NCBI GenBank assembly: GCA_004376575.1
Contig: SOJN01000148.1
Span: 2-64,001, forward strand
Direction of reading: 5' to 3'
DNA length: 64,000 bases
From: a candidate division TA06 bacterium
GTDB taxonomy: Bacteria > Hydrothermota > DG-26 > E44-bin18
Both the position numbers and the translations under genes were made by a program. The notes below the pieces were generated by a model. The model was given only the letters and a program-made list of their open reading frames with translations, had not been told where the DNA came from and searched no databases. Positions 2,260 to 38,356 of the stretch are shown piece after piece (within the stretch, counting starts at the first letter, position 1; every line of letters begins with the position of its first letter).

Positions 2260-2261
2260 GT

Positions 2262-4352: not shown

Positions 4353-4378
4353 GAACCTACAGAAACCCTCTGGAGGAT

Positions 4379-7554: not shown

Positions 7555-7653
7555 TGAATCACAAACTACGAATTACTAATTGCAAAAGTGTAAGAGGATC
7601 GATTTACGAATCCCGTCGCGTTTTTCGGCGTGGGGGTTTCCTTCCTTTCCCTC

Positions 7654-7682
7654 TTGACAACATTTTTGTGTCAAGTTATGAT
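7654..7682 (+). promoter_or_regulatory. Sigma70-like promoter (TTGACA-17-TATGAT) embedded in the palindrome CTTGACA-N9-TGTCAAG, upstream of bamA operon
   Basis: Near-consensus -35 and -10 hexamers with 17-nt spacing. The -35 lies inside a 7-bp inverted repeat (cttgaca / tgtcaag), suggesting an operator. Confidence 0.35.
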
Positions 7683-7772
7683 AACAGTCCGCTCTCTTTA
7701 TCTTCGATGGTTTCCCTAAGTGTTTGGTGCTGTTGGCTTTAAGCCGCCAAACTAAAGCACAGGAGGAAGAAA

Positions 7773-8912
7773 ATGTCACTTGATTGGCTGCCCAGGGACG
7801 ATGAAGTGAAGAACCACGCGCTTTGGGGCAAAGAACATTTCGGCACAGAGCCCCCCTGCGTGATTTATGAAAAGAGACCTGTCATAGATTCAGATGGAAA
7901 TGAAGTCAAAGGGCTCTATTCTGCATGGGTCATTCTGAACAATCCTAAACAGTACAACTCATACACTACTGAAATGGTCAAGGGAGTGATAGCAGGTTTC
8001 CAAAACGCCTCACTCGATAGGAGCGTTGTCTCTGTGGTCTTCACCGCCGTGGGTGATAGAGCATTCTGCACTGGCGGAAACACCAAAGAGTATGCTGAAT
8101 ACTACAGCAAACGGCCCAATGAATACGGGGAGTACATGGACCTGTTCAACCAGATGGTGGATGCTATCCTCATGTGCAAGAAGCCTACCATATGCCGGGT
8201 GAATGGGATGAGAATTGCTGGTGGCCAGGAGATAGGAATGGCCTGTGACATAGCCATTGCGGCTGACACTGCAACCTTCGGGCAGGCGGGACCGAGACAT
8301 GGGTCTGCCCCTGACGGGGGCTCAAGCGACTTCCTTCCGTGGTACTTGAGCATAGAAGACGCACTGTGGAACTGCGTATCATGCGAGATATGGAGTGCGT
8401 ACAAGATGAAAAGGCTTGGTCTCATTACCAGAGTGGTCCCTGTCATAAAGGACGGAGAAAAGTGGATAAGAAACCCGATGGTAATCACAGGCAAATACGT
8501 GGAGGACGGGGAAATCGTTTATGGAGAGCTGGTTAAAGGAGAAGAACTGAAGAAAGCAAAGGAATTCTTGAAGGGAGGCAAGAAAGATTTTGGACTCCTG
8601 GACGCGGCAGTTAATGAAGTCATCTGGAAATTTGTCAACCTGATGCCTGGATGTCTGATAAAATCAATAGATGGTGTCCGAATGAAGAAGAAATTCTTCT
8701 GGGACGTGGCCAAACTGGCAAACAGACACTGGCTTGCAGCAAACATGTCCACGGAAGCGTTCCTTGGTTTCCACGCGTTCAATACTAAGAAGATAACCGG
8801 CAAAGACGTGATTGACTTTGTGAAGTATCGTCAGTTGATTGCCGAGGGACACGTGTTCGATGATTCACTTGCTGAGGAGGTATTCGGGAAGCCGAAACCA
8901 GAAGCTGAGTGA
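7773..8912 (+). CDS. bamA: 6-oxocyclohex-1-ene-1-carbonyl-CoA hydrolase (ring-cleaving crotonase-family hydrolase, BamA/Oah)
   Basis: 379 aa, crotonase fold. Contains QYNSYTT and GQEIGMA, the peptide motifs encoded by the bamA functional-marker primer sites. Length matches BamA/Oah (~380 aa). Confidence 0.85.
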   Translation: MSLDWLPRDDEVKNHALWGKEHFGTEPPCVIYEKRPVIDSDGNEVKGLYSAWVILNNPKQYNSYTTEMVKGVIAGFQNASLDRSVVSVVFTAVGDRAFCTGGNTKEYAEYYSKRPNEYGEYMDLFNQMVDAILMCKKPTICRVNGMRIAGGQEIGMACDIAIAADTATFGQAGPRHGSAPDGGSSDFLPWYLSIEDALWNCVSCEIWSAYKMKRLGLITRVVPVIKDGEKWIRNPMVITGKYVEDGEIVYGELVKGEELKKAKEFLKGGKKDFGLLDAAVNEVIWKFVNLMPGCLIKSIDGVRMKKKFFWDVAKLANRHWLAANMSTEAFLGFHAFNTKKITGKDVIDFVKYRQLIAEGHVFDDSLAEEVFGKPKPEAE

Positions 8913-8974
8913 GAACGACTCTCACAAAACCTTCATCCAAACAACCCCAGATTGGGAAAGGAGTAATCGAGGAA

Positions 8975-10219
8975 ATGAAGAAAAAGGAAATCTTCTGGAT
9001 TCCCAAGAAAATCGACGGCGGCGGTCCCGCCCTCATGAAGAAGATGAAGAAGAAGATTGTCTTTCTTTCCGCCACGCGCACACCCTTTGGAGAGGTGAAT
9101 GGCTCCCTGAAGACGTTCACTCCTATTGAGCTGGGGGCGCTGGCAGCGAGAAGCGCCATTGAAAAAGCGGGACTGAAGGGACGTGAACATCTGATAGATG
9201 AATCAATCTTCGGGAACGCCCAACACACAAGCATCGACTCGCACTACGGTGGAAGACACGTTGCCCTCCGCGCGGGTCTACCTTATGATAAGCCCGGACT
9301 CACGGTCAATCGGATATGTTTCTCAGGCGGAGAGGCTGTCATACAGGGTGCAAAACAGATTATTCTTGGCGAAGCAGAAATCGTTCTTGCTGGGGGGTAT
9401 GAAAGCAGCAGTCAGGCACCCAGTCTGCAATATGGCGCCTCACTGGGCTTCCCGTACATGGCCGGGGCAAGAGTATACCACTTGTTCAAAGACGGTCTTC
9501 AGGATACATACATTAACATGGATATGATGGCGACTGCTGAGAGATTAGCAAAGCTGTATGGCGTGACGCGAAAAGATGCTGATGAATTCGCCTACTCTTC
9601 CCAGATGAAAGCGAAGGACGCAATAGAGAAAGGGAGACTGGCCAAAGAGATAACGCCCGTGGTCATAAAGACCAGGAGGGGCGAGCATGTCGTCTCAGAA
9701 GATGGACACACAAGGCCCGAAGTCACGCTCAAAACACTCGCCGGGCTCAGGAATGTGAAGCCCGGGGGAATTCAGACTGCCGGCAACTCAAGCGGAATCG
9801 TTGATGGCGGCGCTGCCATAATAGTTGCCTCGAGTGAAAAGGCAAAGAAACTGGGGCTCCAACCGATAGGCGAGATTATCTCCTGGGGGACTGCGGCTGT
9901 TGATCCATATTACATGGGTATCGGTCCGGTGCCATCAAGCACAATTGCTCTGAAACGTGCAGGCATGACCTGGAAGAATATTGACCATATAGAGATCAAT
10001 GAGGCATTTGCCGGCCAGTATCTGGCCGTAGAGCGTGAACTGAAATTGGACAGAGGCAAGGTGAACCTGAATGGCGGTGCGATTGCACTTGGCCATCCGC
10101 TTGGAGCAACCGGCACCAGACTCATTACTGCACTTATAACACTTGGGGGCGTCGGCCTGGCATCTGCATGCATAGGTGGCGGCCAGGGCGGAGCAATGAT
10201 TCTGAAAAGTTACCTCTAG
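8975..10219 (+). CDS. Acetyl-CoA C-acyltransferase (thiolase)
   Basis: Thiolase motifs NRICFSGGEAV, NEAFAGQYLAV, GGAIALGHPLGATG, GGGQGGAMIL. The Lys-rich N-terminus makes the start ambiguous (ATG 8975 with AAGGAG upstream; the homolog-consistent start is ATG 9044, MKKKIVFLSATRTPFG). Confidence 0.8.
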   Translation: MKKKEIFWIPKKIDGGGPALMKKMKKKIVFLSATRTPFGEVNGSLKTFTPIELGALAARSAIEKAGLKGREHLIDESIFGNAQHTSIDSHYGGRHVALRAGLPYDKPGLTVNRICFSGGEAVIQGAKQIILGEAEIVLAGGYESSSQAPSLQYGASLGFPYMAGARVYHLFKDGLQDTYINMDMMATAERLAKLYGVTRKDADEFAYSSQMKAKDAIEKGRLAKEITPVVIKTRRGEHVVSEDGHTRPEVTLKTLAGLRNVKPGGIQTAGNSSGIVDGGAAIIVASSEKAKKLGLQPIGEIISWGTAAVDPYYMGIGPVPSSTIALKRAGMTWKNIDHIEINEAFAGQYLAVERELKLDRGKVNLNGGAIALGHPLGATGTRLITALITLGGVGLASACIGGGQGGAMILKSYL

Positions 10220-10225
10220 CGCCCG

Positions 10226-12586
10226 TTGAAAGGAGCACTAAAGATGGACAAAGGACTTGCATACAAAGCTGGGAAGAAATCAAAAGGTTGGAGTGATGTG
10301 GAGATCCTGGTGATCGGGGCAGGCACAATGGGTTCAAGCATAGCCCAGGCATATGCTCAGAACGGGTTCAACGTGGGCCTTCTGGACATATCTGGTGAAA
10401 TCTTGGACAAGGGATTCGATACGATCCAAGCTGAGCTTGACAATGCGAAAGGACGTATATTCTCCCCAGAACAGGTGGAAGATATCAAGAGCAGGATACT
10501 GGGAACGACCAGTTACCCGAAGGCCTGCAAGGGGAAAAATCTTAAACTGGTCATTGAAACAGCCACTGAAAACATAGATATCAAGAAGAAGATCTTCTCC
10601 CAATTGGACAGGTTGTGCCGGCCTCACGTCGTTTTTGCAACCAATTCCTCTTCTCTTGACGTAAACCTGCTGGCACGATCGACAAAACGGCCAGACAAGG
10701 TTGTGTGGATGCATTATTTCTACCTACCGCACAAGAACAGAGCTGGAGAGTATGCCGGTACGGACACTGCAAGCAAGAAAACCATCGCACTGGCAGCCAA
10801 ATACATGAAGCTCGGTGGAAAGGTGGCAACACCAATCCTGAGCAGCAGAAAGGGTGGTGCAGCAGACATTATATTCGTGTCTTTACTGCATGAAGCCGCA
10901 CTGATGAGAGACGAAGGGTATGATATTGCAACCATTGAGGCTGCGGGAAAGAGAGCCTTCAGCATGCCAATGGGATTTCTGCAACTCATGGACGTGACCG
11001 GCGTGGCTGTTGGAATCTACGCCATGGAGTCTTTCTCAGATGATTCCAACAGAAATGATCCTGTCTACAAGGTTTATGGAGACTTTTTCTGGCCACCTGA
11101 ATCATGCAGGGAGCTTATGCGGAGGTACAACAAGGCCGCGGACAAGTCCAGGGTGAGATGGGTCTCCAAAGATGACCTGGAAGCAAAACCCAAAGACGAA
11201 AAGACCGTGCAAATGCTGACTGAAAGATTCTTGGCCATCGGTTTCGTCACTGCCACTGAAGTGGTTGACGCAGGGGTCATAGAAATGGAAGATGTGGACA
11301 GGCTCGCGGAGAATGCCTTCCTCTGGAGCGAGGGGCCTTTCGCCATAATGAATAGAATCGGAATCAAGAATGCGAGCAGTATGGTTCAGGCAAGAGCTTC
11401 GCATGCGAAAAAGCAGCATAGAAGTTTCCCCATGCCAAAACTTCTGAAGACTCAGGCACAGAAGGGGAAACCATGGTCGATCACCATGAGTCCGGTGCTG
11501 TACAATGAGGAGATGGGCGGCAAGGTCGCCAGAATAACAATCTCTAATCCGAAGGCTGCTAATGCCCTCGATAACCGGGTTTTCGAGGAGCTGAGGAGCG
11601 CTTTCAAAAAAGCGAACAGTGACCAAAAAGTGAAGGTGATAATCTTCGATTCCGCCCCAATCAAGACTTTTATAGCGGGTGCCAACGTACCCGACTTCGT
11701 GAAGAACATGAAGGCCGGACGGTTTGAAAAGATACGTGATGATACTGCAATGTGGCAAGATGTTCTTTTCGACTCTATGACTGGGAAGGGCAAACCGAAG
11801 ATCGCGATCGTGGATGGGCTCACCCTTGGCGGAGGGGTCGAAACTGCCCTTTCTTTTGCATTAGACCCCGACTCAGTTGTCATTGCAACTGACAGGACGT
11901 CTTATACCCTACCCGAGACAAAGCTTGGAATCTTCCCCGGGCTACGCGGGACTCTGGTGCTCCCTCAAATTATTTACAACAAGACCAAGGATTCTGAGCT
12001 GGCAGTGGCCATGGCAAGGTACTATATCCTCGCAGGTGGCACGTCCACATCTTCCCCCAGGCTTCTCAAATACCTGGGATTTGCGGATTTGATAGTCCCC
12101 GCACATGAGAGAGACGACGCTGCAGCAGAAGTTGCGGATGCAATAATCAAGAACAAAGGGAAACCCCTCAGTACGAAACAATTGAAAAGTCTCAAGATTA
12201 ACGAGCTACCATCTGAGTTGAGCCTCGAAGAAAGGGAGGAGCTGCGGACGATGAAAGAGCTCTTCCTGACGCAGGATTTGATACCGGCTCTCTACGCTTA
12301 TGGGCGAGGTGACAGAGAGCTCTTCTTTGTCGGAGAAGCTCGCTCGTACGCACGGAGGATTGCGCGGAGGGTGGCAAACAACTCTCCTAATGCGGTGTGG
12401 ATTTCTAATTGGCTGATAAGCAAGGGGTTTGAGGACTTCCTGAAAGGAGTGGACACCAAGACGATCGCAGAGAGGGAGCTGAATGACTATCTGGTGCCGA
12501 CATTCATGCACCCCGATGCTATGGTGGGATTGACTTCACTCCTGGAGCGTAAGTTCCCTGAGTTTCCACGGAGATATCCATTTTAA
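10226..12586 (+). CDS. Bifunctional 3-hydroxyacyl-CoA dehydrogenase (N-terminal) / enoyl-CoA hydratase (C-terminal), reversed FadB domain order
   Basis: 786 aa. N-terminal Rossmann VIGAGTMGSSIAQ (3HCDH_N). C-terminal crotonase region ITISNPKAANALD...GLTLGGG. Confidence 0.85.
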   Translation: MKGALKMDKGLAYKAGKKSKGWSDVEILVIGAGTMGSSIAQAYAQNGFNVGLLDISGEILDKGFDTIQAELDNAKGRIFSPEQVEDIKSRILGTTSYPKACKGKNLKLVIETATENIDIKKKIFSQLDRLCRPHVVFATNSSSLDVNLLARSTKRPDKVVWMHYFYLPHKNRAGEYAGTDTASKKTIALAAKYMKLGGKVATPILSSRKGGAADIIFVSLLHEAALMRDEGYDIATIEAAGKRAFSMPMGFLQLMDVTGVAVGIYAMESFSDDSNRNDPVYKVYGDFFWPPESCRELMRRYNKAADKSRVRWVSKDDLEAKPKDEKTVQMLTERFLAIGFVTATEVVDAGVIEMEDVDRLAENAFLWSEGPFAIMNRIGIKNASSMVQARASHAKKQHRSFPMPKLLKTQAQKGKPWSITMSPVLYNEEMGGKVARITISNPKAANALDNRVFEELRSAFKKANSDQKVKVIIFDSAPIKTFIAGANVPDFVKNMKAGRFEKIRDDTAMWQDVLFDSMTGKGKPKIAIVDGLTLGGGVETALSFALDPDSVVIATDRTSYTLPETKLGIFPGLRGTLVLPQIIYNKTKDSELAVAMARYYILAGGTSTSSPRLLKYLGFADLIVPAHERDDAAAEVADAIIKNKGKPLSTKQLKSLKINELPSELSLEEREELRTMKELFLTQDLIPALYAYGRGDRELFFVGEARSYARRIARRVANNSPNAVWISNWLISKGFEDFLKGVDTKTIAERELNDYLVPTFMHPDAMVGLTSLLERKFPEFPRRYPF

Positions 12587-12597
12587 GGGGGAAAATC

Positions 12598-13344
12598 ATG
12601 AAGGACCTGAAGGGGAAATCAGCTATTGTCACAGGTGGTAGCTTGGGTATAGGGACTGCGATAGCGCTGGATCTTGCGGCCAATGGTGTTAATATCGCTA
12701 TCAACTACAGAAAGCACGCAGACGAAGCCAACGCCGTAGTCGAAAAGGCAAAAGGGATGGGTGTGAAGGCGTTGGCCGTGAAGGCCGATGTATCCAATTT
12801 TCAGGATGCTCAGAACATGGTTGACACGGTCGTCAAGGAGTTCGGGTCGCTGGACATACTGATCAACAATGCAGGAGTCAACTGGGATGGTGTCATCTGG
12901 AAGATGAGCGAAGAACAATGGGATACAGTGATAGGTATCGACCTGAAAGGTTGCTTCAACTACATAAGAGCAGTCTCCCCCATATTCAGGGAGCAGAAGC
13001 ACGGGAAGATCGTCAACATAACCTCCATAAATGCGCTGAGGGGCAAGTTCGGGCAGAGCAATTATTCGGCTGCCAAGGCAGGTGTCATTGGCCTGACAAA
13101 GACAGCTGCAAAGGAACTCGGCAAATACAGCATCAATGTCAACTCCGTAGCTCCAGGACTGATAGAGACAGAGATGATAAAGAAGATGCCAGATGATGCG
13201 AAACAGGTGTCCATCAATGAAACGACTTTCAAAAGGCTGGGCACGCCGGAGGATGTAGCTCACGTGGTCGCATTTCTGTGCAGCGACCTTTCCAGGCACG
13301 TGACTGGCGAAGTCATAAAAGTAGACGGCGGGCAATATATCTGA
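12598..13344 (+). CDS. Short-chain dehydrogenase/reductase (FabG/BadH-like 3-oxo/hydroxyacyl reductase)
   Basis: 248 aa. TGGSLGIGTAIA cofactor motif and YSAAK catalytic motif. Classical SDR. Confidence 0.85.
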   Translation: MKDLKGKSAIVTGGSLGIGTAIALDLAANGVNIAINYRKHADEANAVVEKAKGMGVKALAVKADVSNFQDAQNMVDTVVKEFGSLDILINNAGVNWDGVIWKMSEEQWDTVIGIDLKGCFNYIRAVSPIFREQKHGKIVNITSINALRGKFGQSNYSAAKAGVIGLTKTAAKELGKYSINVNSVAPGLIETEMIKKMPDDAKQVSINETTFKRLGTPEDVAHVVAFLCSDLSRHVTGEVIKVDGGQYI

Positions 13345-13351
13345 AAAACAG

Positions 13352-14557
13352 ATGTGCAGGAGGATAGCAATGGAACTGAGGGACGTAGTAATAGTGAGCG
13401 CTTGTAGAGCTCCGATGGGAAGGTTCGGAGGGACTTTGAAGAATATGGCTGCCTACGACGTAGGAGCTGTGGCGGTGAAGGAAGCACTCAAGAGAGCAAA
13501 GCTGAAGGGCGAACAGGTGGACGACGTCTTGCTCGGCTCTTGCAGACAAGCAGGAAATGGACCCAACCCTGCAAGAACTGCCGCGGTCAGAGGTGGAGTC
13601 CCCGCACAGGTACCTGTGATGACACTCAACATGGCGTGTCCCTCGGGCATGAGAGCGCTCGCGCAGGCCAGCCAGGCAATAAGGCTGGGAGACGCGAGCA
13701 CAATCCTTGTCGGTGGATTTGACTCTATGAGCACCATCCCCTATCTTCTGAAAGACGTGAGGTGGGCCGGGTTCAAGATGGGTGACAAAACACTTCTCGA
13801 TGGTTGGGCAGACTCTATAGATCCCCTCTGCGGGTTCGGAATGGGGATGACCGCGGAAAACGTTGCTGAGAAATACAAGATCACACGCGAAGAGCAGGAC
13901 AAGTTTGCCTATGAAAGCCATATGAAGGCGGCGAAAGCGCAGGACGAGGGATGGTTTAATGAAGAGATCGTGTCAATCGAGGTTCCTCAGAGAAAGGGTG
14001 ATCCCATCATCTTCGATAAGGACGAAACGATCAGGCGCGATACTTCGCTGGAGAAACTGGCCAAGCTTCGTGCTGTGTTCAAGAAGGACGGGTGCGTCAC
14101 TGCCGGGAATGCGTGCGCAATGTCAGACGGTGCGGCAGCTATGATTGTTATGTCGCGGCCGAAAGCAAAGGAACTTGGTCTCAAGCCGCTCTTTTCGATC
14201 GTTTCCTATGCGCAGACTGCTGTGGAACCAGAAACCATGGGAGAAGGGCCGGGGTTTGTCATCCCTATGGCACTCGAGCGGGCAGGGATGGAGCTAGGAG
14301 ACATGGATCTCATAGAGGTGAACGAAGCCTTTGCCGTTCAGATTCTGGCCAATGAAAAGAAACTCAACTGGGACCGCACCAAGCTGAACGTTCATGGTGG
14401 AGCGATAGCCCTTGGTCACCCGACTGGGATAAGTGGTGCACGGATCATTGTTACTCTATATCATGCGCTGAAGCAGAGAAACAAGGAGCACGGCATCGCG
14501 GCAATCTGCGGAGGCGGCGGCGTCACCATGGCCACTGTGATCCGCAGAGAAAACTGA
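13352..14557 (+). CDS. Acetyl-CoA acetyltransferase (thiolase II)
   Basis: 401 aa. VVIVSACRAPMGRFGG N-terminus, NEAFAVQ, GGAIALGHPTGISG, CGGGGVTMA. Confidence 0.9.
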   Translation: MCRRIAMELRDVVIVSACRAPMGRFGGTLKNMAAYDVGAVAVKEALKRAKLKGEQVDDVLLGSCRQAGNGPNPARTAAVRGGVPAQVPVMTLNMACPSGMRALAQASQAIRLGDASTILVGGFDSMSTIPYLLKDVRWAGFKMGDKTLLDGWADSIDPLCGFGMGMTAENVAEKYKITREEQDKFAYESHMKAAKAQDEGWFNEEIVSIEVPQRKGDPIIFDKDETIRRDTSLEKLAKLRAVFKKDGCVTAGNACAMSDGAAAMIVMSRPKAKELGLKPLFSIVSYAQTAVEPETMGEGPGFVIPMALERAGMELGDMDLIEVNEAFAVQILANEKKLNWDRTKLNVHGGAIALGHPTGISGARIIVTLYHALKQRNKEHGIAAICGGGGVTMATVIRREN

Positions 14558-14878: not shown

Positions 14879-14965
14879 CAGATCCTTCGACTCCGTCCTT
14901 CGGACTCTACTCAGGACGAAAAATGACTCATGCCATCAAGCGATGGCATGGCCCTTTTTCGTTTT

Positions 14966-16577: not shown

Positions 16578-16672
16578 CCCGCCCGGGCCGTTTAACGGCC
16601 GCTCGTTTCACGGACCCCCTTGCCAAGGGGGAAGCCTGCCTGGGTCGTTCCACGGGGTATTTTTCGTCCTGT
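16578..16672. repeat. Intergenic repeat family A copy (inverted orientation) plus the perfect hairpin CCCCCTTGCCAAGGGGG, then the GTATTTTTCGTCCTG motif
   Basis: cccgcccgggccgtttaacggccgctcgtttcacgg matches the reverse complement of the element at 77-117 and 21569-21608. GTATTTTTCGTCCTG is shared with 29849 and 30065. Confidence 0.6.
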
Positions 16673-16905
16673 TTAGTCTTTGTTAGAGGTCACAAGCGAA
16701 GCGCAGTGAGCTCGTTACAAAGAGTTAATCCCGAAAGGAGTCGAGGGGAGCAAAGCCGAAGGAGAAGAGAAGGAGAGGGATGTGCAGAAATCTGAGGTAC
16801 GCATAGAAGCCAGGTCTGCAGATTTCTCAATCTTATGCCTTGTTCAGAACCGGTTTTCTGTTAATATTGTCGGTGTTCTATGCCATTTCAGAAAGGAGAT
16901 GTAAT

Positions 16906-26109: not shown

Positions 26110-28605
26110 TTGAAACTGGTCATAGACGGTCAGACCGTAGAGGCTAGACCGGAAAGCACAATTCTTGAAGCAGCTCTAGAGACACAGATATATATCCCTG
26201 CCATCTGTTACCATCCGGATTTGCCGACATTCTCAAAGGCTGAACCCTCGGGGGGGATATTTGGGGGAGTTGAGAAAATCACTTCAGAAGAAAATGCAAA
26301 ATACCAAGGGTGCGGTCTTTGCATTGTTGAGGTGGATTGGAGAAGTGGTCCAGTCCTTTCATGTGAAACAGAAGCAGAAGACGGTATGGTCATCAAAACA
26401 AATACAGAGAAGATCAAGGACAAGAGACAGGAAGCTCTGGCCAGGATACTCAAAGACCACCCAAGAGCCTGTCTCCTCTGCACTCAAAAAGAAGGTTGTT
26501 CCAGGGAACCCTGTTCAGAGGACGTCCCTATGGAAGAGAGGTGCTGTCCATTACTGGGCAAGTGTGAGCTCGAGAAGATCGCAGACTTCGTCGGAGTCCC
26601 CCAGAACCCGGGCAAGTATAAGTCTCTGAGAATCCCGTTGCTGGACGACGAGCCGTTGTTCAAGCGAGATTACAACCTCTGCATTGGCTGCATGAGGTGT
26701 GTCCGCGCATGCAAGGACCTGAGAGGCGTTGAAGCGCTTGGATATGTAATCAAAAACGGCACCACATACCTGGGCACCATCAATGGATCGAAGCTCAAGG
26801 ACGCCGGGTGCAGGTTCTGCGGAGCCTGCGTTGAAGTGTGTCCCACAGGTGCACTGACCGACATCAAGCCTTTCACCCTTTCCGAGAAAGAGAAAGTTCT
26901 TGTCCCCTGCAGGGACGCTTGTCCGGCAGGAATAGACGTACCGGCGTATGTCCGGGCAATAGGCAGAGGCGAAACGGACAGAGCCCTCTCGATTATTTAC
27001 GAAAGCGCTCCTCTTCCAGGAATTCTGGGCATGGTTTGCCACCATCCATGCGAAGATGTCTGCAGGAGGAAAGAGATAGAAGAACCCATCTCCATATGCG
27101 GCATCAAACGATTTGCTGCAGAAAATGGAAAGCTGACGCACGCCTCTCCCCTGCTTCCCTCTACCGGCAAAAAGGTCGCGGTGATAGGTTCTGGTCCAGC
27201 AGGGCTCAGTACTGCCCATTTCCTGAAGCTGAAAGGCCATCAAGTTACTGTTTTCGAAAGAGAAGAGAAACCAGGAGGAATCCTAAGATACGGCATTCCC
27301 GCGTACAGGCTGCCTGATGCAGTCCTGGACAGCGAGATATCAACTGTGCTGGACGGAATTGAATTGAAGACTGAAGCTGCTCTTGGTCAAGATTTCCAGC
27401 TGAAGGACCTGGCAGACGAGGGATTTGACTGCGTGTTTCTCTGCACCGGAGCCGGAGAGAGTAAGAAACTTGAGATACCGGGCTCAGACAGTGAAGGTGT
27501 ATATTGGGGCCTTGACTTCTTGAAGGAGATTAACAAGGGTGACAAACCAGCTCTCGGCGAGAACGTCGCGGTCATAGGCGGAGGAAATGTCGCCTTTGAC
27601 GTTGCGCTGTGCTGCCTCAGGCTGGGAGTTCGACAGGTGACCGTCGTCTGCCTGGAGTGTAAATCTGAGATGCCCGCTTTCAATAAAGAGATAGATACTG
27701 CCAAAGAGGAAGCGGTCAGAATAATGAACTCCTGGGGACCAAAAGAGATAGAGTGCGCGGATGGCAAAGTCAAAGGAGTCTTCCTGAAGAAATGCACAGA
27801 GGTGTTCGACAAGAAAGGGAACTTCTCTCCTCAATACGACGAATCAGTCGTGGAACACATCGATGCTGACAATGTGATTCTTTCCATAGGCCAGGAGCCA
27901 GATGTGGATCTCATCTCTCTCCCTGGCATGCCAGAACACGATTCTTCAAGACTCCTTAGAGCAGAAGATACGAGAACAAACATCCCTACAGTGTTCGCTG
28001 GCGGGGATGCCACAAGAGGTCCTTCATCGGTAATTGAGGCTGTTGCAGACGGTAGGAAGGCCGCCGACGAAATCGACAGATTCCTGGGAGGCAGGGGCCC
28101 CGTTCGTACTTCCGGGCCTCAGCCCGCGAACCCTGAGATTGGTCGGGACGAACAGTTCTGTGAGCGTCTCAGAGTGGCAATGCCATGCGCTGATCCGTAC
28201 GAGAGAGGAAAATCGTTCACCCCCATAGAACTTGGATATGGTGAGAAAGAGGCAGGCATCGAAGCAAACCGTTGCCTTCAATGCGACCTGAGACTACAGA
28301 TTACTGAAGCTACTCTTCCTCCTGAGAAGTGGATACTTCTTGATCGTGAAGCTTTGAATGAAATCCCTGAAAAGGAAGGCGTGTACCAGCTGGCAGGCGA
28401 GAAGAAGATGGTGACAAAGATAGCCGGAACTCAGAATCTTCTACAATCACTCACGGCCGAACTGGACAGTGAAAATGGGAAGTACTTCTGGTTTGAGGAG
28501 GACCCGATGTACACGAAACGCGAAAGTGAGCTCATACAACAACATCTCCAGAAGTACGGTGAACTGCCAGGAGCAGGTGAAGAAGACCTGGATGACCTCT
28601 TCTAG
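26110..28605 (+). CDS. Multi-cluster iron-sulfur flavoprotein: NuoG-type 2Fe-2S/His-Cys3 4Fe-4S N-terminus + 2x[4Fe-4S] ferredoxin domain + GltD/SudA-type NAD(P)H:FAD oxidoreductase + C-terminal extension; candidate NAD(P)H:ferredoxin oxidoreductase for BCR
   Basis: 831 aa. HPRACLLCTQKEGC (H-x3-C-x2-C-x5-C). CIGCMRCVRAC and CRFCGACVEVCP. GltD-like C-x3-CP...VCHHPCEDVCRR. Dinucleotide folds KKVAVIGSGPAGL and VAVIGGGNVAFD. C-terminal ~170 aa includes an extra CLQC pair. Confidence 0.7.
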   Translation: MKLVIDGQTVEARPESTILEAALETQIYIPAICYHPDLPTFSKAEPSGGIFGGVEKITSEENAKYQGCGLCIVEVDWRSGPVLSCETEAEDGMVIKTNTEKIKDKRQEALARILKDHPRACLLCTQKEGCSREPCSEDVPMEERCCPLLGKCELEKIADFVGVPQNPGKYKSLRIPLLDDEPLFKRDYNLCIGCMRCVRACKDLRGVEALGYVIKNGTTYLGTINGSKLKDAGCRFCGACVEVCPTGALTDIKPFTLSEKEKVLVPCRDACPAGIDVPAYVRAIGRGETDRALSIIYESAPLPGILGMVCHHPCEDVCRRKEIEEPISICGIKRFAAENGKLTHASPLLPSTGKKVAVIGSGPAGLSTAHFLKLKGHQVTVFEREEKPGGILRYGIPAYRLPDAVLDSEISTVLDGIELKTEAALGQDFQLKDLADEGFDCVFLCTGAGESKKLEIPGSDSEGVYWGLDFLKEINKGDKPALGENVAVIGGGNVAFDVALCCLRLGVRQVTVVCLECKSEMPAFNKEIDTAKEEAVRIMNSWGPKEIECADGKVKGVFLKKCTEVFDKKGNFSPQYDESVVEHIDADNVILSIGQEPDVDLISLPGMPEHDSSRLLRAEDTRTNIPTVFAGGDATRGPSSVIEAVADGRKAADEIDRFLGGRGPVRTSGPQPANPEIGRDEQFCERLRVAMPCADPYERGKSFTPIELGYGEKEAGIEANRCLQCDLRLQITEATLPPEKWILLDREALNEIPEKEGVYQLAGEKKMVTKIAGTQNLLQSLTAELDSENGKYFWFEEDPMYTKRESELIQQHLQKYGELPGAGEEDLDDLF

Positions 28606-29770: not shown

Positions 29771-29848
29771 ACTACAAACTGCAAACTGCGAAAGAAATAA
29801 CCGAAGTACAAAGCGAAAAAGACCCGTGGTGTCGTTGGAGACCACGAT

Positions 29849-30219
29849 GTATTTTTCGTCCTGAGCGGGAGCGAAGGATCCCCTGAGCCCGAGATTGCTT
29901 CGCTATCGCTCGCAATGACAGTACCTCTATTCCGTGTAGCCCAGGAAGTTCAGAGTTTGGAAGCTGACGACTGACAACTGATAGCTTCTGCTGTGTCGTA
30001 CAGCCTACAGCGAGCCAAATAGGTCCAGCTGAAAAAGACCCACACTGTCGATAGACAGGGTAAGGTATTTTTCATCCTGAGGGAACGCCGAAGGACCTCC
30101 TGAATGCTTCTATGTCACTGGATGAGACATATTTGGTCCTTCATCGGCGTGAGCCGATGGAGGAGAAGCCATGCCTGCCGCGTTTCTCGTGAAGCGAGAT
30201 ACACGGGGCCTGCCCCGCC
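29849..30219. repeat. Repeat-dense intergenic spacer: two GTATTTTTC(G/A)TCCTGAG...GAAGGA elements (29849-29925, 30065-30110), a GATTGCTTCGCTATCGCTCGCAATGAC hairpin, GTACAGCCT(A/G)CA...AATAGG motifs, and an inverted family-A2 copy (30170-30219)
   Basis: Direct sequence comparison. 30170-30219 is the reverse complement of the A2 elements at 20412-20450 and 21611-21650. 29891-29921 matches 14631-14655. Confidence 0.65.
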
Positions 30220-30465
30220 TCAAGACATGAACGAGGCAGGTTGCGATGGGTGTCTTGACCCCCTCACTGTGAAGACAATATACACGCGGAAGCTTTCTTA
30301 GCCCCATCCCACCCACACCCAGCCGCAGTAGCCTTCAGTTGTCAGCTCTCAGCCAAGCACACAAGTACGGAGTACAGCTGATAGCGTATTGCGTACAGCC
30401 TGCAAAATAGGATTGACTTTGATGCAAATTCACCTAGAATATGGACTTAAAGTTTTGGAGAAGCG

Positions 30466-31995
30466 ATGAGAAAACTGCCAGAAAACGAATATGTAGCCTT
30501 GACGACTCTCAGCCGACTGGAAAGGCCAGCACCTTTTGACAGCCTGGTTGCTCAGTCTGGTATGGACCAATCCAAACTAATGGCCGCTGCCATATCCCTC
30601 AAGGAGCAGGACCTTATAGTAATCCAGGAGGAGGCAGGAACTCTCATTTCCCTTGCTGACAATGGGAAGATATATGCTGAGCAACTCTTCCCGGAGAGGA
30701 GAGCCCTGAAAGCCATCCAGGATGCCGGAGGAAAGGTGAAGATCTCTACTCTCGCCCAACTCATAGATATACCGGATCTCGATTCCAGAAGAATCGTAAA
30801 GTGGCTTTCCCAGAAGGGCTGGTGTGCAAAAGAAGAGGACAACCTCGTAGTAACGGACAAGGGAAAGCAAGCAGCCAAAAAAAAGGGCCAGGACGAAATG
30901 CTTGTTGATGTGCTTTCCCAGAAAGGCACTGCTGACATCAAGTCCTTGAAGGAGAATGGCATTGATGTTGAGGCCGCCCAGCGACTTCTCAAAGGAAGAA
31001 CCCGAATCGTTAAGGTAAGATCGAAGAAGCTGAGACTTGTGAACCTCACAGAGAAAGGCAAGAAACTAGTATCGGAAGGGATCGAACCGGAAAAGCAAGC
31101 TACCACACTTACCTATGAGATGCTGGCAACAGGCAAGTGGCGCGAAGTCAGTTTGAAAAGCTATGACGTGAGTCTCCCAGGTGCTGTCACCTACCCTGGC
31201 AAAAGCCATCCTTTGAGAAGAATCATAGACGAGGCCCGCCAGGTCTTCCTGGAGATGGGTTTCACCGAGATAGTCTCGCCTTACGTGGACTCTTCCTTCT
31301 GGGTATTTGACGCACTCTTCCAACCCCAGGATCACCCCGCAAGGGAGATGCAGGACACGTTTTACATGTCCGCTCCCAGGCGATCGAAGCTTCCTCCGAA
31401 GAAGTTTGTCGAACCGGTTAAAGCCACTCACCAGAACGGCGGAAAAACTGGGAGCACAGGCTGGGGGTACAAGTGGGACATAGAAAAAGCAAGGAGAAAC
31501 GTACTCAGGACACACACCACAGCAACGACCATCAGATACCTGGCAGCACATCCTGAGCCGCCCCAGAAGGTTTTCAACATCGGCAGGAATTTCAGAAGAG
31601 AGAAGATCACTTTCAAGCATCTCATAGAGTTCTACCAGGTGGATGGAATAGTGATCGACGAAAAGGCGAGTCTGTCCACTTTGCTTGGGACCCTGGCTGA
31701 ATTCTATAAGAAAATCGGATTCCCAAAAGTCGTGTTCAGGCCGTCGTTCTTCCCTTACACAGAACCGAGCGTTGAGGCCTTTGCCTGGCTTGAAGCCAAA
31801 GATGCCTGGATCGAACTTGGAGGAGCTGGCATCTTCAGAGCCGAGGTTACCCGACCTCTTAACTGCCACGTCCCCGTTCTGGCCTGGGGTCTGAGTATTG
31901 AAAGAATCGCCATGATGAGATTTGGCCTGAGTGACATAAGGAAATTGTACTGGTCCGACATAGACTGGTTGAGGGAGGCGGAGCTATGCCGGTAA
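30466..31995 (+). CDS. pheS: Phenylalanine--tRNA ligase alpha subunit, archaeal/eukaryal type
   Basis: 509 aa (bacterial PheS is ~340). Signature HPL...MGFTEI...FWVFDALFQPQDHPARE...DTFY of archaeal/eukaryotic cytosolic PheRS-alpha. Class II motifs FRREKITF and GAGIFRAEV. Confidence 0.85.
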   Translation: MRKLPENEYVALTTLSRLERPAPFDSLVAQSGMDQSKLMAAAISLKEQDLIVIQEEAGTLISLADNGKIYAEQLFPERRALKAIQDAGGKVKISTLAQLIDIPDLDSRRIVKWLSQKGWCAKEEDNLVVTDKGKQAAKKKGQDEMLVDVLSQKGTADIKSLKENGIDVEAAQRLLKGRTRIVKVRSKKLRLVNLTEKGKKLVSEGIEPEKQATTLTYEMLATGKWREVSLKSYDVSLPGAVTYPGKSHPLRRIIDEARQVFLEMGFTEIVSPYVDSSFWVFDALFQPQDHPAREMQDTFYMSAPRRSKLPPKKFVEPVKATHQNGGKTGSTGWGYKWDIEKARRNVLRTHTTATTIRYLAAHPEPPQKVFNIGRNFRREKITFKHLIEFYQVDGIVIDEKASLSTLLGTLAEFYKKIGFPKVVFRPSFFPYTEPSVEAFAWLEAKDAWIELGGAGIFRAEVTRPLNCHVPVLAWGLSIERIAMMRFGLSDIRKLYWSDIDWLREAELCR

Positions 31996-33776
31996 TGGGA
32001 ATTCCGCTTGACGCCCTCTACAGGCTCGTTAAGAAAAAGATCGAGAAGAAAGAGCTGTTCGCTCTCCTCACCAGTCTGGGCTGTGATGTGGAGGGCTACT
32101 TCGAGGTCGAGCGATTCAAATGTACAAGATGCGGTGAGATAGTCGAACTCACATCCCAGGAAGACTCGCTAGGTGAATGCTCTTCCTGCGGTGTGGAGTT
32201 TGAGCCGGGGAAAACCATGCTCAGCATAGGTATGAGCGAAGTTGTCAGAATGGAGCTTCTACCAGCGAGGCCTGACATGTTCGACGTGGGCGGCCTGGCC
32301 AGAGCCATACGGGGATACCTGGGTCTTGAGGTTGGCATGCCGCGTTATCCGCTGCAGCCGTCGAACATGCTTGTCAAGGTGGCCAAATCAGTGAAGGGCG
32401 TAAGGCCCTGCATCGCCTGTGCTGTCGCCAGGGGAATGAAGCTCGACTACGAAACGATAAAGGCAGTTATGAAGATGCAGGAGAATCTCCACTGGGCCCT
32501 TGGCAGAGATAGAAGAAAAGCATCAATCGGAGTCTATGATCTCTCATCCCTGAGACCCAATTTTGTATACACAGCCTATGGCAAGAAAGAGATGAAGTTT
32601 GTGCCACTCGGGGGAATGCCCGGAGGCAGCACCGAGCCGACAACTCTGGAGAATATTCTTGAGCGCCATCCTAAGGGGATGGCATACAAACATCTCCTGG
32701 AAGACTATCAAGTCTACCCCATTCTCATTGACTCGGCAGACCAGGTTCTGTCCATGCCGCCCATTATCAACAGCGAGGAGACTAGAGCGGGAATTGAAAC
32801 AGAAGACCTGTTCGTAGATGTGACCGGTCACGACAGGACAAGCGTGGAAAGGACCCTCAATGTTTTTGTGTGTTCGCTCGCGGAATTGGGCGCCAGGATT
32901 GAAACCGTCAGAATCGCCGATACTACCGAAGAGCTGCGCACCCCCAATCTTGAATCAAGAGAGTCTATCCTGGTTTCCGAGCACGCCTCCTCTTTGATAG
33001 GAATCGATATTCCTCCTGACGATTGTGTCAGGCTTCTGAAGAAGATGCGATTTGATGCTTTCACGTCAGAAGAAAAGATACATGTGAGCATACCTCCCTT
33101 CAGGACTGACATCATGCACGAGTACGATCTGATAGAAGATATTGCTATTGCCTATGGCTATCACAACATAAAGCCTGCTCTCATTCCAACCATGACAATC
33201 GGCGCACAAAGGCCCCTGGAGAGAACTTCCGCACGGCTCAGAAACTGCATGCTGGGCCTCGGATTCTTGGAAGTGGTCACGACTCTGCTTTCTAATCCCC
33301 AGAAGAACTACGGTCTTTTGCAGAGAGAAGATGACAACAGGGCACCGAAGATAGAGAACCCCTCAACAGTTGAACATACAATTCTGAGGACCCACCTCAT
33401 CTCAGGTCTTCTGGAGATGTTCAAGATCAACAGAACCCGCAAGATGCCTCAGAAGACGTTCGAGCTTGGTGATGTTTCTCTCATAGAAGAAAAAGGAGAG
33501 ACCGGAACGGTTGATAAGAGAATTCTCGCCGGTGCAATCATGGATCCAAAGACTGGATTTTCAGAGATAAAATCGTGTGTCGCGGCTGTTATGAGAGAAA
33601 CAGGCAGAGATTTTGACCTGCGCCCTGAAAATGATCCTTCCTTTATCAAGGCCAGGTGTGCGGGAATATACCTGAAAGATTCGAAGATAGGAATATTGGG
33701 GGAGATTCACCCACAGGTTCTTGAGAACTTCGAAATAGTACAACCTGTCTCCCTTTTCCACATGGCAGCTGAGTAG
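31986..33776 (+). CDS. pheT: Phenylalanine--tRNA ligase beta subunit, archaeal/eukaryal type (with a Cys4 zinc-ribbon insert)
   Basis: 596 aa (bacterial PheT is ~800). Overlaps the pheS stop. B3/B4-like and B5 regions. CTRCGEIVEL...CSSCG zinc ribbon near the N-terminus. Confidence 0.8.
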   Translation: MPVMGIPLDALYRLVKKKIEKKELFALLTSLGCDVEGYFEVERFKCTRCGEIVELTSQEDSLGECSSCGVEFEPGKTMLSIGMSEVVRMELLPARPDMFDVGGLARAIRGYLGLEVGMPRYPLQPSNMLVKVAKSVKGVRPCIACAVARGMKLDYETIKAVMKMQENLHWALGRDRRKASIGVYDLSSLRPNFVYTAYGKKEMKFVPLGGMPGGSTEPTTLENILERHPKGMAYKHLLEDYQVYPILIDSADQVLSMPPIINSEETRAGIETEDLFVDVTGHDRTSVERTLNVFVCSLAELGARIETVRIADTTEELRTPNLESRESILVSEHASSLIGIDIPPDDCVRLLKKMRFDAFTSEEKIHVSIPPFRTDIMHEYDLIEDIAIAYGYHNIKPALIPTMTIGAQRPLERTSARLRNCMLGLGFLEVVTTLLSNPQKNYGLLQREDDNRAPKIENPSTVEHTILRTHLISGLLEMFKINRTRKMPQKTFELGDVSLIEEKGETGTVDKRILAGAIMDPKTGFSEIKSCVAAVMRETGRDFDLRPENDPSFIKARCAGIYLKDSKIGILGEIHPQVLENFEIVQPVSLFHMAAE

Positions 33777-35902: not shown

Positions 35903-36757
35903 TCAAATCCTGCCTACAACAAGAGCCACGAGGCCGGCGACCATGTCCATTTTGAGCAACGTAGACGCCCGGCTTGTGCTCATCCAACTCCTGCGAGCTA
36001 TCAAGGAAGCAACGATAACTGCCACGACCAGATCGACACCAACCAGAACAAATATCAGATAGAGCGCTCCGTAGAGACCAAACACAAACGGCAACGGTGT
36101 CACCAATATGAGCAAGGCGAAAACCGCTGCAGAAAGGAGAACCCCTGCTCGTTCACCGAACAGAACAGGGAAGGTCCTTGCTTGCACACTTCTATCTCCC
36201 TTCACGTCTGCAACATCCTTCACTATTTCTCTGCCCAGATGAAAGAGGAAGGCAAACGCAGCAGGGAACAGTGCTCCCACAGGATTTCTGACCGCCACAC
36301 CTCCATAGATGAAAGCGAGTGCGGTAAGCATGCTGACCAGGAGGTTCCCCCACAACCCCTGCCTCTTCAACCACACGGCATAAGCAACCAGCAGCGCACA
36401 GCAAGAAATGGCCATCAATAACGCGGAGAAACTTATCAGCCAGGAGAGTAGGATGCCCAGCGAGAAGAGTAATACGCCAATAATAGAAGCAGCTCTACGG
36501 GTGAGCAGCCCGGAGGGTATAGGCCTTTTCGGATTGTTGATGGAATCAGTCTCTGAGTCAGACACGTCGTTTATTGCGTTTCCGGCACCAAGAATCATTC
36601 CCGCAGATACGCATGCCAGAAGAACCTTCAACGCCAATAAGGTGCCGGAAAGGTAGGACCCGATTGCAACAGATATACCTACGATCAACACATTGACAGG
36701 CCTGATTATGCCCAAGCAGCCCCTGATTCTGTCAGCAAACCTGAGGTCGTTTCTCAT
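35903..36757 (-). CDS. UbiA-family aromatic prenyltransferase
   Basis: 284 aa, ~8 TM segments, Asp-rich NAINDVSDSETD motif. Confidence 0.7.
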   Translation of the reverse strand: MRNDLRFADRIRGCLGIIRPVNVLIVGISVAIGSYLSGTLLALKVLLACVSAGMILGAGNAINDVSDSETDSINNPKRPIPSGLLTRRAASIIGVLLFSLGILLSWLISFSALLMAISCCALLVAYAVWLKRQGLWGNLLVSMLTALAFIYGGVAVRNPVGALFPAAFAFLFHLGREIVKDVADVKGDRSVQARTFPVLFGERAGVLLSAAVFALLILVTPLPFVFGLYGALYLIFVLVGVDLVVAVIVASLIARRSWMSTSRASTLLKMDMVAGLVALVVGRI

Positions 36758-36772: not shown

Positions 36773-38356
36773 TTAGATATCCATCCTTACCGAAAGGTTC
36801 CACTGCAACCAGTCCATAGGTTTTTCAGGGGTCATCCCAAAGGCGGTGGGGTTTTTTATCCTTCTATATTCTACACCGGCCTTCAAAAACAACCACCACG
36901 CTGGCCTGTATGATACGTCTGCTGACAGGCAGTTGCAGGTCTCTACTTTGCCTGAGGGAAAAAATGGACGGGGCTCGCCCAGCTCCTCTTCCCACGACAA
37001 ATCGACCGTCCCCTCCCCGTGTCTCAGGTACATGTAGCGGAGAAAGCCCTCAAAGAATATTGACGGACGATGAGATATCTCCAAAATGAGCCTGTCAGAA
37101 TCAGGTCCCAGCATCTCACCTATGGGGGTCCCGGAATGAACGTACTTGTTGCTCGAATCTCTGTGTGTGTATACCCACTTGTTGAGCCGAGTGTATTCGC
37201 ACTTCAGGTCAGAATCGGGAAGTCCAAGGGGATCGGCAACGTGCAGTCCGACCACTCCTGCCAGCTTGTCCGGAGCGCGCGCTCCCCTTTCATACTGAAC
37301 GTCATCAATGAGAAACTCGCCATAGAGCCTGACGCCTCCCAGGGCATAGGTGACCAGGTCGAAAAGCCATAGAGTGTTATCATCCTGGTGCATATTGTGC
37401 TCGGCTGCATAGTAGGGGATGATCGGATTGACATACTGAGGCTCGGGAAAAGATCTACGGTGGTAAACGACAGCTTCCGATATTCCAAATACCGTCTTCA
37501 GGGGAAGCTGGAGGCTCAATCTATGCACAGAAAGGTATATGCCTTCATCAGGTGAGAGGACCGCAGTGAAGCCTCTGGCTGAGATACGCCACAGATCTGC
37601 ATTTAAGGCAATCAAGTCGAGCGGCTCTCCGCTGGGCGATACAAGGAGTGTTCCGAACCTTCCCGGCCCCCACCAGAATCTGTCCCTACCCAGTTCGAGC
37701 TGAATGGGTCCGGTCTTAAGCTTAAAGTACGCCCTGTCGATTTCGGCAGTTCCTCTCTTCCACACCCTCGTTCCCCGGCCTGAATATGTGGAACCAATGT
37801 CCTCATCCCCCTCAATCAAGGAAAAGGTGAGCCGCTCATTGTAGGCAAGCCTCTCGTTCAGTTGCCCATACGTCTCAAAACCCAAGGAAGTTGTCGAAAC
37901 CGTCAGTAAGGTATCAAACAGGGTAGAGTCATTCTTCAGTTCTGCCCTGGAAATAAGAAGTGATTCTTCCAGATACACATCGAAGTTCACCCGGCTTTCA
38001 CCTTTGTCAAAGCGTAGTACAGGCATATCCTGGTACCTGTAGCCTTCTCTTGCGTCTGTGCCCAGCTCCTTTGCAAACTCAGTCTTCAATCTGGCAAGAT
38101 AGTGCCGATCTATAGAGCTGATTGCTGCTTCTCCTTGCTCCGCCTCTTTGAGAAAAGGCTCGAGCGCTTCAGCTATCTTTCCTCGCGTTAAGGGCCTCGC
38201 CTCCGTGTCAACGTATATGTAGCTCTTTGCCACGAATCTGTCCAGGATCGGATAGACCCAGCTGTCCACTTCAACATTTACCAGACTCTGGGGATTTGCT
38301 ATTGCTGCAACTAGAAGGGAAAGCAGAACTGGAAGGCAAACAGCTTTTGCCATCAA
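36773..38356 (-). CDS. Secreted/outer-membrane protein of unknown function (signal peptide; aromatic-rich, possibly beta-barrel, Wzi-like?)
   Basis: MMAKAVCLPVLLSLLVAAIANPQ signal peptide. 527 aa, Trp/Tyr-rich, no recognisable catalytic motifs. Confidence 0.4.
   Translation of the reverse strand: MMAKAVCLPVLLSLLVAAIANPQSLVNVEVDSWVYPILDRFVAKSYIYVDTEARPLTRGKIAEALEPFLKEAEQGEAAISSIDRHYLARLKTEFAKELGTDAREGYRYQDMPVLRFDKGESRVNFDVYLEESLLISRAELKNDSTLFDTLLTVSTTSLGFETYGQLNERLAYNERLTFSLIEGDEDIGSTYSGRGTRVWKRGTAEIDRAYFKLKTGPIQLELGRDRFWWGPGRFGTLLVSPSGEPLDLIALNADLWRISARGFTAVLSPDEGIYLSVHRLSLQLPLKTVFGISEAVVYHRRSFPEPQYVNPIIPYYAAEHNMHQDDNTLWLFDLVTYALGGVRLYGEFLIDDVQYERGARAPDKLAGVVGLHVADPLGLPDSDLKCEYTRLNKWVYTHRDSSNKYVHSGTPIGEMLGPDSDRLILEISHRPSIFFEGFLRYMYLRHGEGTVDLSWEEELGEPRPFFPSGKVETCNCLSADVSYRPAWWLFLKAGVEYRRIKNPTAFGMTPEKPMDWLQWNLSVRMDI

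Follow-up and report, generated by a model that had tools for sequence, protein, structure and literature searches.

The pheS–pheT locus

The DNA described here is a stretch of 64,000 nucleotides (assembly GCA_004376575.1, contig SOJN01000148.1, positions 2 to 64,001 of the forward strand) that is identical in sequence to a metagenome-assembled genome (MAG) held at NCBI under the name 'candidate division TA06'; the whole stretch is called the window below, and all coordinates refer to it. Two overlapping genes in this window, pheS and pheT, encode the alpha and beta subunits of a phenylalanyl-tRNA synthetase (PheRS) of archaeal/eukaryal architecture (PheRS-A). The pair is likely to be the housekeeping PheRS of the TA06 bacterium and a member of a bacteria-only clade, distinguished by a zinc-ribbon-like insert in the beta subunit, that goes back to one ancient replacement independent of the one known from spirochaetes. 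A first-pass annotation of the window, made from the sequence alone, had proposed subunits of 509 and 596 residues, and open reading frames of these lengths lie exactly where it placed them. The features of the locus are as follows.

30466 to 31995, + strand: pheS, PheRS alpha subunit, archaeal/eukaryal type, 509 residues (open reading frame, NF003210, TIGR00468)
30466 to 31095, + strand: N-terminal extension of alpha, residues 1 to ~210, three winged-helix-like DNA-binding-fold domains (NF003210, AlphaFold2, Foldseek)
31162 to 31977, + strand: class II catalytic module of alpha, residues 233–504 (PF01409, motifs)
31986 to 33776, + strand: pheT, PheRS beta subunit, archaeal/eukaryal type, 596 residues (open reading frame, TIGR00471)
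31986 to 31995, + strand: overlap of pheS stop and pheT start, 10 nt, ATGCCGGTAA (direct sequence reading)
32115 to 32201, + strand: zinc-ribbon-like insert in the B1 domain of beta, residues ~44–72, C46/C49/C65/C68 (alignment, motif, AlphaFold2)
32370 to 32855, + strand: B3/4 editing domain of beta, residues 129–290 (PF03483 at 23.9 bits, below the cutoff of 29.3; fold matches to 2CXI_A)
32979 to 33161, + strand: B5 domain of beta, residues 332–392 (PF03484, 80.3 bits, cutoff 28.6)
33189 to 33764, + strand: catalytic-like module B6/B7 of beta, residues 402–593 (PF17759, 144.4 bits, cutoff 22.4)

The two proteins are identical to TET43751.1 and TET43752.1, which NCBI already annotates as phenylalanine--tRNA ligase alpha and beta, so that both genes have names in public databases; enzymes of this kind are familiar. 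The 10-nt overlap lies in the context …GAGCTATGCCGGTAATGG…, with GGAGG 8 nt upstream of the pheT ATG. An archaeal-type pheS stands directly upstream of pheT, head to tail, in every related locus that includes upstream DNA, often with an overlap of 7 nt. Translation of the two genes is probably coupled, and they would be transcribed from a promoter of their own.

Both subunits are of the archaeal/eukaryal type

The alpha subunit matches the archaeal-type PheS equivalog model NF003210 with 558 bits (cutoff 350) over residues 2–507 and TIGR00468 with 370.6 bits (cutoff 237.45), and the class II catalytic module is matched by PF01409 with 287.9 bits over residues 233–504. The signature beginning with FW on which the first-pass annotation relied is present as FWVFDALFQPQDHPAR at residues 278–293 (family form FW.FDALFQPQ.HPAR), motif 2 (NFRRE…) is found at residue 375 and motif 3 (GGAGIFR / AWGLSIER) at residues 452 and 473, and the catalytic motif residues are invariant across the alignment of homologues from the clade. 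Among solved structures alpha is matched best by two eukaryotic cytosolic alpha chains, 8S8B_A with 282 bits and the human 3L4G_A with 276 bits; bacterial alpha chains reach 115–138 bits.

The AlphaFold2 model of alpha has an overall predicted local distance difference test score (pLDDT) of 81.6, and its residues 1–210 are predicted with pLDDT ~88–92 as three helix/wing units having a repeated H-H-H-E-E order of secondary structure. In Foldseek the complete chain pairs with full-length human FARSA (3L4G_C) in an alignment of 523 columns, and homologues of alpha carry precomputed Pfam matches to helix-turn-helix domains of the MarR, TrmB and IclR types. The long N-terminal DNA-binding-fold domains that had been proposed for alpha are thus borne out by the three modelled units and by the alignment with 3L4G_C. 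Such an extension, replacing the bacterial coiled coil, is among the features that define the archaeal/eukaryal form of PheRS (Klipcan et al., 2010; PMC3275996).

The beta subunit scores 532.8 bits against the archaeal model TIGR00471 (pheT_arch, cutoff 282.65) and 152.4 bits against the bacterial model TIGR00472 (pheT_bact), below the cutoff of 402.65 for the latter. Its B1 domain is a weak Pfam match in which a model of 83 positions is stretched over residues 1–112. The Pfam scan of beta finds neither a tRNA_bind domain (B2, the EMAP-like OB fold) nor an FDX-ACB domain (B8), and the catalytic-like module, which runs to residue 593 of 596, closes the chain. The AlphaFold2 model of beta (pLDDT 91.0) finds the eukaryotic beta chains 8S8B_C, 3L4G_B and 7BY6_B, and also 2CXI_A, in Foldseek. 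With 2CXI_A, an N-terminal fragment of the Pyrococcus horikoshii subunit, the TM-score normalised to the target is 0.95 at a root mean square deviation of 3.2 Å and 33% identity, and the sequence search of solved structures gives 227 bits for 2CXI; against bacterial beta structures the TM-score normalised to the query is ~0.37–0.41, with 13–19% identity. For the pair as a whole, human, Plasmodium and Pyrococcus PheRS are the best solved-structure matches and bacterial PheRS is far behind.

Both subunits therefore exceed the cutoffs of archaeal-type equivalogs while beta stays below the bacterial one, which upholds the earlier assignment to the archaeal/eukaryal type; neither the models passed nor the human, Plasmodium and Pyrococcus structures matched best place the pair within canonical bacterial PheST. 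With archaeal/eukaryal PheRS-A, represented by FARSA/FARSB (3L4G) and the P. horikoshii enzyme (2CXI), the TA06 pair shares three N-terminal DNA-binding-fold domains and a class II core in alpha; B1, B3/4, B5 and the catalytic-like module without B2 and B8 in beta; and the catalytic motifs together with the Asn, Asp, Thr and Ser of the editing site. It differs in having a bacterial host, an overlapping operon, and an insert with four cysteines in B1. The bacterial enzyme PheRS-B (Thermus thermophilus 1PYS, Escherichia coli 3PCO) carries out the same reaction with the same quaternary design and has homologous catalytic, catalytic-like, B3/4 and B5 cores, but its alpha subunit of ~330–350 residues begins with a coiled coil and its beta subunit of ~785–840 residues contains both B2 (EMAP-like) and B8 (anticodon-binding).

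The enzyme looks fully functional, proofreading included, because the residues of the editing pocket have aligned counterparts in the P. horikoshii and human enzymes and are nearly invariant among relatives. In alignments with P. horikoshii and human sequences reconstructed from PDB alignments, beta residues L208, L247, S256, N262, D278 and T280 correspond to P. horikoshii L168, L202, S211, N217, D234 and T236, and N262 further to human N238; all six are invariant or nearly so among the relatives of beta. Apart from N217, the aligned B3/4 residues are editing-site positions reportedly described by Sasaki et al. 2006. The asparagine itself, N217 in P. horikoshii and N238 in human PheRS, is an established residue of the editing site (PMC3275996). 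By analogy with the family, alpha and beta would form an (alpha-beta)2 tetramer in which alpha activates phenylalanine and loads tRNA-Phe, the B3/4 site of beta would hydrolyse mischarged Tyr-tRNA-Phe, and the N-terminal domains of alpha would bind tRNA, substituting for the missing anticodon-binding domain B8.

A four-cysteine insert in the B1 domain

The first-pass annotation had described a zinc ribbon of the form CxxC...CxxC as a trait of the archaeal beta subunit. The motif is indeed present, as C46-x2-C49…C65-x2-C68 (CxxC-x15-CxxC), in an insert of ~30–45 residues, and the four cysteines are invariant in the clade alignment of beta homologues. Its attribution to the archaeal form does not hold, since the motif is absent from 113 of 114 cluster representatives of archaeal length and the insert from the solved human, Plasmodium and Pyrococcus structures. 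The alignments to solved structures and to the archaeal-type NCBIfam model begin after the insert, at query residues 65–94, and the Foldseek alignment of beta with 2CXI_A contains ~45 more columns than there are target residues.

The motif occurs at the same position in 117 of the 120 closest beta homologues, the exceptions being one protein truncated at its N-terminus, one CxC variant and one degenerate copy. It is likewise conserved in ~36 cluster representatives (clustering at 50% identity) and in all 31 related bacterial genome loci, among 34 in total, for which the N-terminus is covered. The available sequences thus indicate that the zinc ribbon is an insertion specific to the bacterial clade, a signature of that clade and not an archaeal trait.

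In the AlphaFold2 model the insert region (pLDDT 84–89) is an excursion at the tip of the long B1 beta-hairpin, between the strands at 34–46 and 78–90. Rubredoxin and Zn-ribbon Pfam models match it at sub-threshold scores only, and the four cysteines are putative zinc ligands. Most likely the ribbon is an embellishment of the enzyme that would either stabilise B1 structurally or make contact with RNA. A different N-terminal CxxC…CxxC, on an extension of ~100 residues, is found in one PheT representative of the archaeal-length clade (P0222, 691 residues); because this protein branches outside the zinc-ribbon clade, PheT may here have acquired a zinc module independently.

Distribution of the insert-bearing enzyme

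HMMER, run exhaustively over 1.84 billion cluster representatives, yields 9806 matches at E ≤ 1e-3. The top ~32 representatives (~400–640 bits, mostly 590–630 residues) all carry the insert and align from residue 1, whereas the next ones are 520–570 residues long and lack the motif, query residue ~85 aligning to their own residue ~41. The nameable representatives without the insert are archaeal (Thermoplasmata, Euryarchaeota, Bathyarchaeota/Thermococci MAGs, and Thermoprotei), a taxon name being at hand for 4 of the 19 archaeal-length representatives looked up. A profile search with a 'DTNRPDLW' group retrieves Bathyarchaeia and Nanoarchaeia only.

All named members with the insert are bacteria: TA06, WOR-3 (Caldifarciminota in the current NCBI taxonomy), Gemmatimonadota and Eisenbacteria, with further MAGs labelled Planctomycetota, Myxococcota, Acidobacteria, Bradymonadia and Pseudomonadota. 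Two members are closed MAG chromosomes (CP070758 from Gemmatimonadota and CP070680 from WOR-3), and the closest named relatives of the TA06 pair are 44–52% identical to it. The type is thus spread across uncultivated bacterial phyla, far more widely than the first-pass annotation supposed when it confined it mainly to spirochaetes and a few deep-branching lineages. A coherent bacteria-only clade at this distance from its nearest named relatives does fit its further suggestion of a phylogenetic marker or an ancient horizontal transfer.

Archaeal-type PheRS in bacteria is textbook knowledge for spirochaetes. The literature searched (open-access full text, in which absence is no proof) describes it for spirochaetes only, and the 2025 WOR-3 genome papers in it contain no mention of PheRS. 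The large bacteria-only branch of PheRS-A with its conserved zinc-ribbon insert is apparently undescribed.

Five divergent zinc-ribbon loci (L019, L023, L025, L026 and L028), labelled uncultured bacterium, Eisenbacteria or Myxococcota, have a tRNA-Leu(CAA) gene ~2–6 kb downstream of pheT, usually together with tRNA-Ala(GGC). This shared arrangement hints that the bins are related to one another despite their differing labels.

Phylogeny of the beta subunit

The first-pass annotation had proposed a phylogeny of PheS and PheT as a check, and this was carried out for PheT, by neighbour-joining with archaeal and human sequences on trimmed MAFFT alignments of ~543 columns. The clade has moderate support in these trees. 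The insert-bearing proteins together with one degenerate member form a single split, whose exact composition is recovered in 26 of 60 bootstrap replicates with 151 taxa and in 55 of 100 with 103 taxa; the latter value rises to 85 of 100 if as many as two members are allowed to fall elsewhere, provided that no outside sequence enters. When the tree is rooted on the human sequence the zinc-ribbon clade lies nine nodes deep among archaeal sequences, and the midpoint root falls between this clade and all archaeal representatives. Its nominal sister, a Thermoprotei MAG with P0187, is not reliable. The clade is separate from the Nanoarchaeia/Bathyarchaeia 'DTNRPDLW' group, and the P. horikoshii fragment falls outside it, together with P0270 and P0173; identity to the beta subunit of the window is 41% for P. 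horikoshii and 43–46% for other archaeal representatives.

The genes are native to a bacterial genome

The host assignment made earlier, to a bacterium with lipopolysaccharide machinery, agrees with the presence in the window of lptB, an lptA-like gene, kdsA, kdsB, kdsC, kdsD and an lpxL-like gene, along with rpoN (sigma-54), rpsA (ribosomal protein S1), hprK (HPr kinase), uppP, HPF and CTP synthase. Bacteria-specific genes stand on both sides of pheST, hprK being within 20 bases. The GC content is ~0.50 and flat across the window, GC at third codon positions (GC3) is 0.59 in pheS and 0.57 in pheT, and the codon usage of the two genes correlates with that of the other 33 genes of the window with r = 0.83 and r = 0.88, respectively, which is among the highest values of the 35 genes. 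A chimera with archaeal DNA, which had been named as an outcome that would overturn the earlier reading, is contradicted by this typical composition and codon usage and by the bacterial flanks, and chimerism and recent transfer are excluded.

A check for a second pheST copy of bacterial type had also been proposed. It could be followed within the 64-kb window, the part of the genome covered, where neither such a copy nor any other paralogue of pheS or pheT is present.

Origin of the archaeal-type PheRS

The findings are best accommodated by an ancient transfer of the pair, which is probable. Most likely the bacterial pheST was replaced once, anciently, by an archaeal pair, which would then have passed through long vertical descent with perhaps some transfer between bacteria. 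The acquisition appears to be independent of the Thermococcales-like one in spirochaetes, because spirochaete PheRS is published as having a Thermococcales affinity and a beta subunit of 514–573 residues (Andam & Gogarten, 2011; PMC3191353) and because P. horikoshii falls outside the zinc-ribbon clade. The two cases resemble each other in that an archaeal-type enzyme replaces the bacterial one, both subunits are transferred together and the result is a shared derived character. They differ in that the spirochaete enzyme groups with Thermococcales and Nanoarchaeum according to the published description (PMC3191353), whereas the beta subunits of the TA06/WOR-3 clade mostly have 590–630 residues and bear the ribbon. 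Judged by P. horikoshii and by the published lengths, the beta subunit of the window, at 596 residues with its insert, falls outside the spirochaete/Thermococcales clade.

A common interdomain transfer, in which the TA06/WOR-3 enzyme would derive from the Thermococcales-like PheRS of an ancestor of Spirochaeta, Treponema and Borrelia, is accordingly very improbable. Spirochaetes are the only bacteria with an archaeal PheRS in the searchable literature, and P. horikoshii 2CXI is among the best solved-structure matches of beta (227 bits; TM-score 0.95), as such a descent would lead one to expect; against it, for neither subunit do the 120 best homologues include one with a spirochaete name, the lengths of the beta subunits differ as described, and P. 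horikoshii sits with P0270 and P0173 at an identity to the window protein that is no higher than that of other archaeal representatives. Vertical retention, with the zinc-ribbon PheRS-A as an ancient bacterial lineage predating or parallel to the archaeal one, would agree with the midpoint root, which splits the clade from all archaeal representatives, and with the failure of the trees to single out a specific archaeal donor. The midpoint position is also explicable by a long stem after transfer, however, and the depth of the clade among archaeal sequences in the human-rooted tree, as well as the limitation of the type to a minority of bacterial phyla (the solved PheRS of Porphyromonas, E. coli, Thermus and Mycobacterium, for instance, all belong to the bacterial type), make retention a most unlikely explanation.

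Two further alternatives concern the status of the genes in the present genome. The spacer before pheS is unusually long (695 nt) and contains repeats, and a UbiA prenyltransferase resembling archaeal-lipid enzymes is encoded 2 kb downstream, features that might be expected of a recent horizontal acquisition or of an assembly or binning chimera placing archaeal DNA in a bacterial contig. Composition and codon usage effectively refute this: GC, GC3 and codon usage of pheST are indistinguishable from those of the rest of the window. Moreover, genes confined to bacteria flank the pair, hprK within 20 bases and others within a few kilobases to each side, and the same protein has been recovered on several independent contigs of different provenance. 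Identity to the nearest archaeal proteins is only ~40%, whereas the insert is common to hundreds of bacterial homologues, and the probability left to such an event is negligible. Duplicate aminoacyl-tRNA synthetase genes of different origin are common in bacteria, and the pair might instead be an accessory second PheRS beside a canonical bacterial pheST, serving stress-resistant charging, another editing specificity or a non-translational role of the zinc ribbon. This would be compatible with the 64 kb of genome examined and with the existence in NCBIfam of PheS-related ligases of unknown role, such as SrmL. It is nevertheless unlikely, given that both subunits are full-length equivalogs well above their cutoffs whereas SrmL scores 71 bits on alpha against a cutoff of 300, that the residues for catalysis and editing do not vary within the clade, that the pair is present in every lineage sampled, two closed chromosomes included, and that pheST has native codon usage and lies among housekeeping genes.

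Several points nonetheless weigh against the interpretation as a housekeeping enzyme acquired in one ancient replacement separate from that of spirochaetes. Tetramer formation, charging and editing are all deduced from family membership, and the second, bacterial-type pheST was looked for in the 64-kb window only. The trees are neighbour-joining trees of very divergent sequences with a bootstrap for the exact clade of only 43–55% and an unreliable sister group, and the argument for independence from the spirochaete transfer is indirect, by way of published lengths and affinities. The labels Planctomycetota, Myxococcota, Acidobacteria and Bradymonadia point to later transfers between bacteria or to mislabelled bins. 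Finally, gene neighbourhood is not conserved: across the 34 loci, no homologue of any of 17 neighbours from the window lies within 10 kb of pheST, and conserved synteny was accordingly rejected as a sign of vertical descent.

A more far-reaching version, in which an ancient archaeon-to-bacterium replacement, the gain of the B1 zinc ribbon and subsequent vertical descent constitute a rare genomic change of single origin uniting WOR-3, TA06, part of Gemmatimonadota, Eisenbacteria and allied lineages, with the ribbon perhaps providing a new tRNA or regulatory contact, is possible but doubtful. If it were true, the insert would serve as an independent character in resolving how the deep branches within the FCB-related radiation are ordered.

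Implications for phylogenetic markers

The basic function of the enzyme is ordinary; what the locus offers is a useful phylogenetic character and a caution for marker pipelines, and no new mechanism. PheRS is an essential, single-copy marker of bacterial phylogenomics, and PheS and PheT are included in marker sets of the PhyloSift type. Bacterial PheT models will miss or misalign the proteins of these uncultivated phyla, and an archaeal-type PheRS can bring interdomain signal into concatenated trees. The zinc-ribbon insert is a discrete presence/absence character by which such lineages can be recognised and their common ancestry tested. It also makes the enzyme a natural variant of a well-studied one with an extra predicted metal-binding module, and the existence of a cultured WOR-3 isolate (sy37; PMC12285271) makes purification feasible.

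The spacer upstream of pheS

The 695 nt between pheS and the upstream aminopeptidase gene (pepP) contain one further feature of the locus.

30413 to 30440, + strand: candidate sigma-70-like promoter TTGACT-16-TAGAAT, 25 nt upstream of the pheS start (consensus scan only)

Two sigma-70-like sites are found in the region against 3.3 expected, which is weak evidence for the candidate; two terminator-like repeat copies precede it in the spacer. A search of Rfam for a T-box or leader upstream of pheS gives no family at the gathering score anywhere in the window. No tRNA gene is present in the window, and no tRNA-Phe gene in the window or in the 34 related loci.

The two repeat copies in the spacer (29815–29865 and 30031–30081) belong to a short intergenic repeat found also at 14910–14926 (− strand) and 16657–16673. 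It has the layout GAAAAAG(A/G)CC, variable hairpin, (G)TATTTTTCGTCCTGAG…GAAGGA, and its 17-mer core has four matches with up to two mismatches, compared with 0.04 expected. Its appearance is that of an intrinsic terminator whose flanks are conserved, or of a repetitive extragenic palindromic (REP)-like element. The spacer further contains an inverted repeat of 29 nt (29963–29991 and 30325–30353; 79% complementary, arms 333 nt apart), which encloses the second terminator-like copy.

Neighbouring genes

The UbiA-family prenyltransferase downstream of pheT (35903–36757, − strand, 284 residues) has as its best NCBIfam matches PRK12884 with 229.5 bits (cutoff 269) and the digeranylgeranylglyceryl-phosphate synthase model NF009521 with 207.7 bits (cutoff 296). 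Its UniRef name is geranylgeranylglycerol-phosphate geranylgeranyltransferase and its NCBI name hypothetical. The gene is a second archaeal-looking one in this bacterium and may be linked to the archaeal-type ether-lipid genes reported from bacteria of the FCB group. Between it and rpoN lies an open reading frame of 527 residues (36773–38356, − strand) having no NCBIfam match at E ≤ 1e-5.

On the other side of pheST, a multidomain Fe-S flavoprotein of 831 residues is encoded at 26110–28605 (+ strand, TTG start); its N-terminus resembles NuoG, HoxU and [FeFe]-hydrogenase and its centre the small subunit of NADPH-dependent glutamate synthase, all below curated cutoffs. The beginning of the window (245–14557, + strand) is occupied by a gene cluster for anaerobic aromatic or alicyclic acyl-CoA metabolism, comprising a 2-hydroxyacyl-CoA dehydratase/benzoyl-CoA-reductase-like subunit with its activase (TIGR00241, 224 bits), three CoA ligases, a 6-oxocyclohex-1-ene-1-carbonyl-CoA hydratase (TIGR03200, 578 bits, cutoff 464), two thiolases, a FadB-like protein and a FabG-like reductase.

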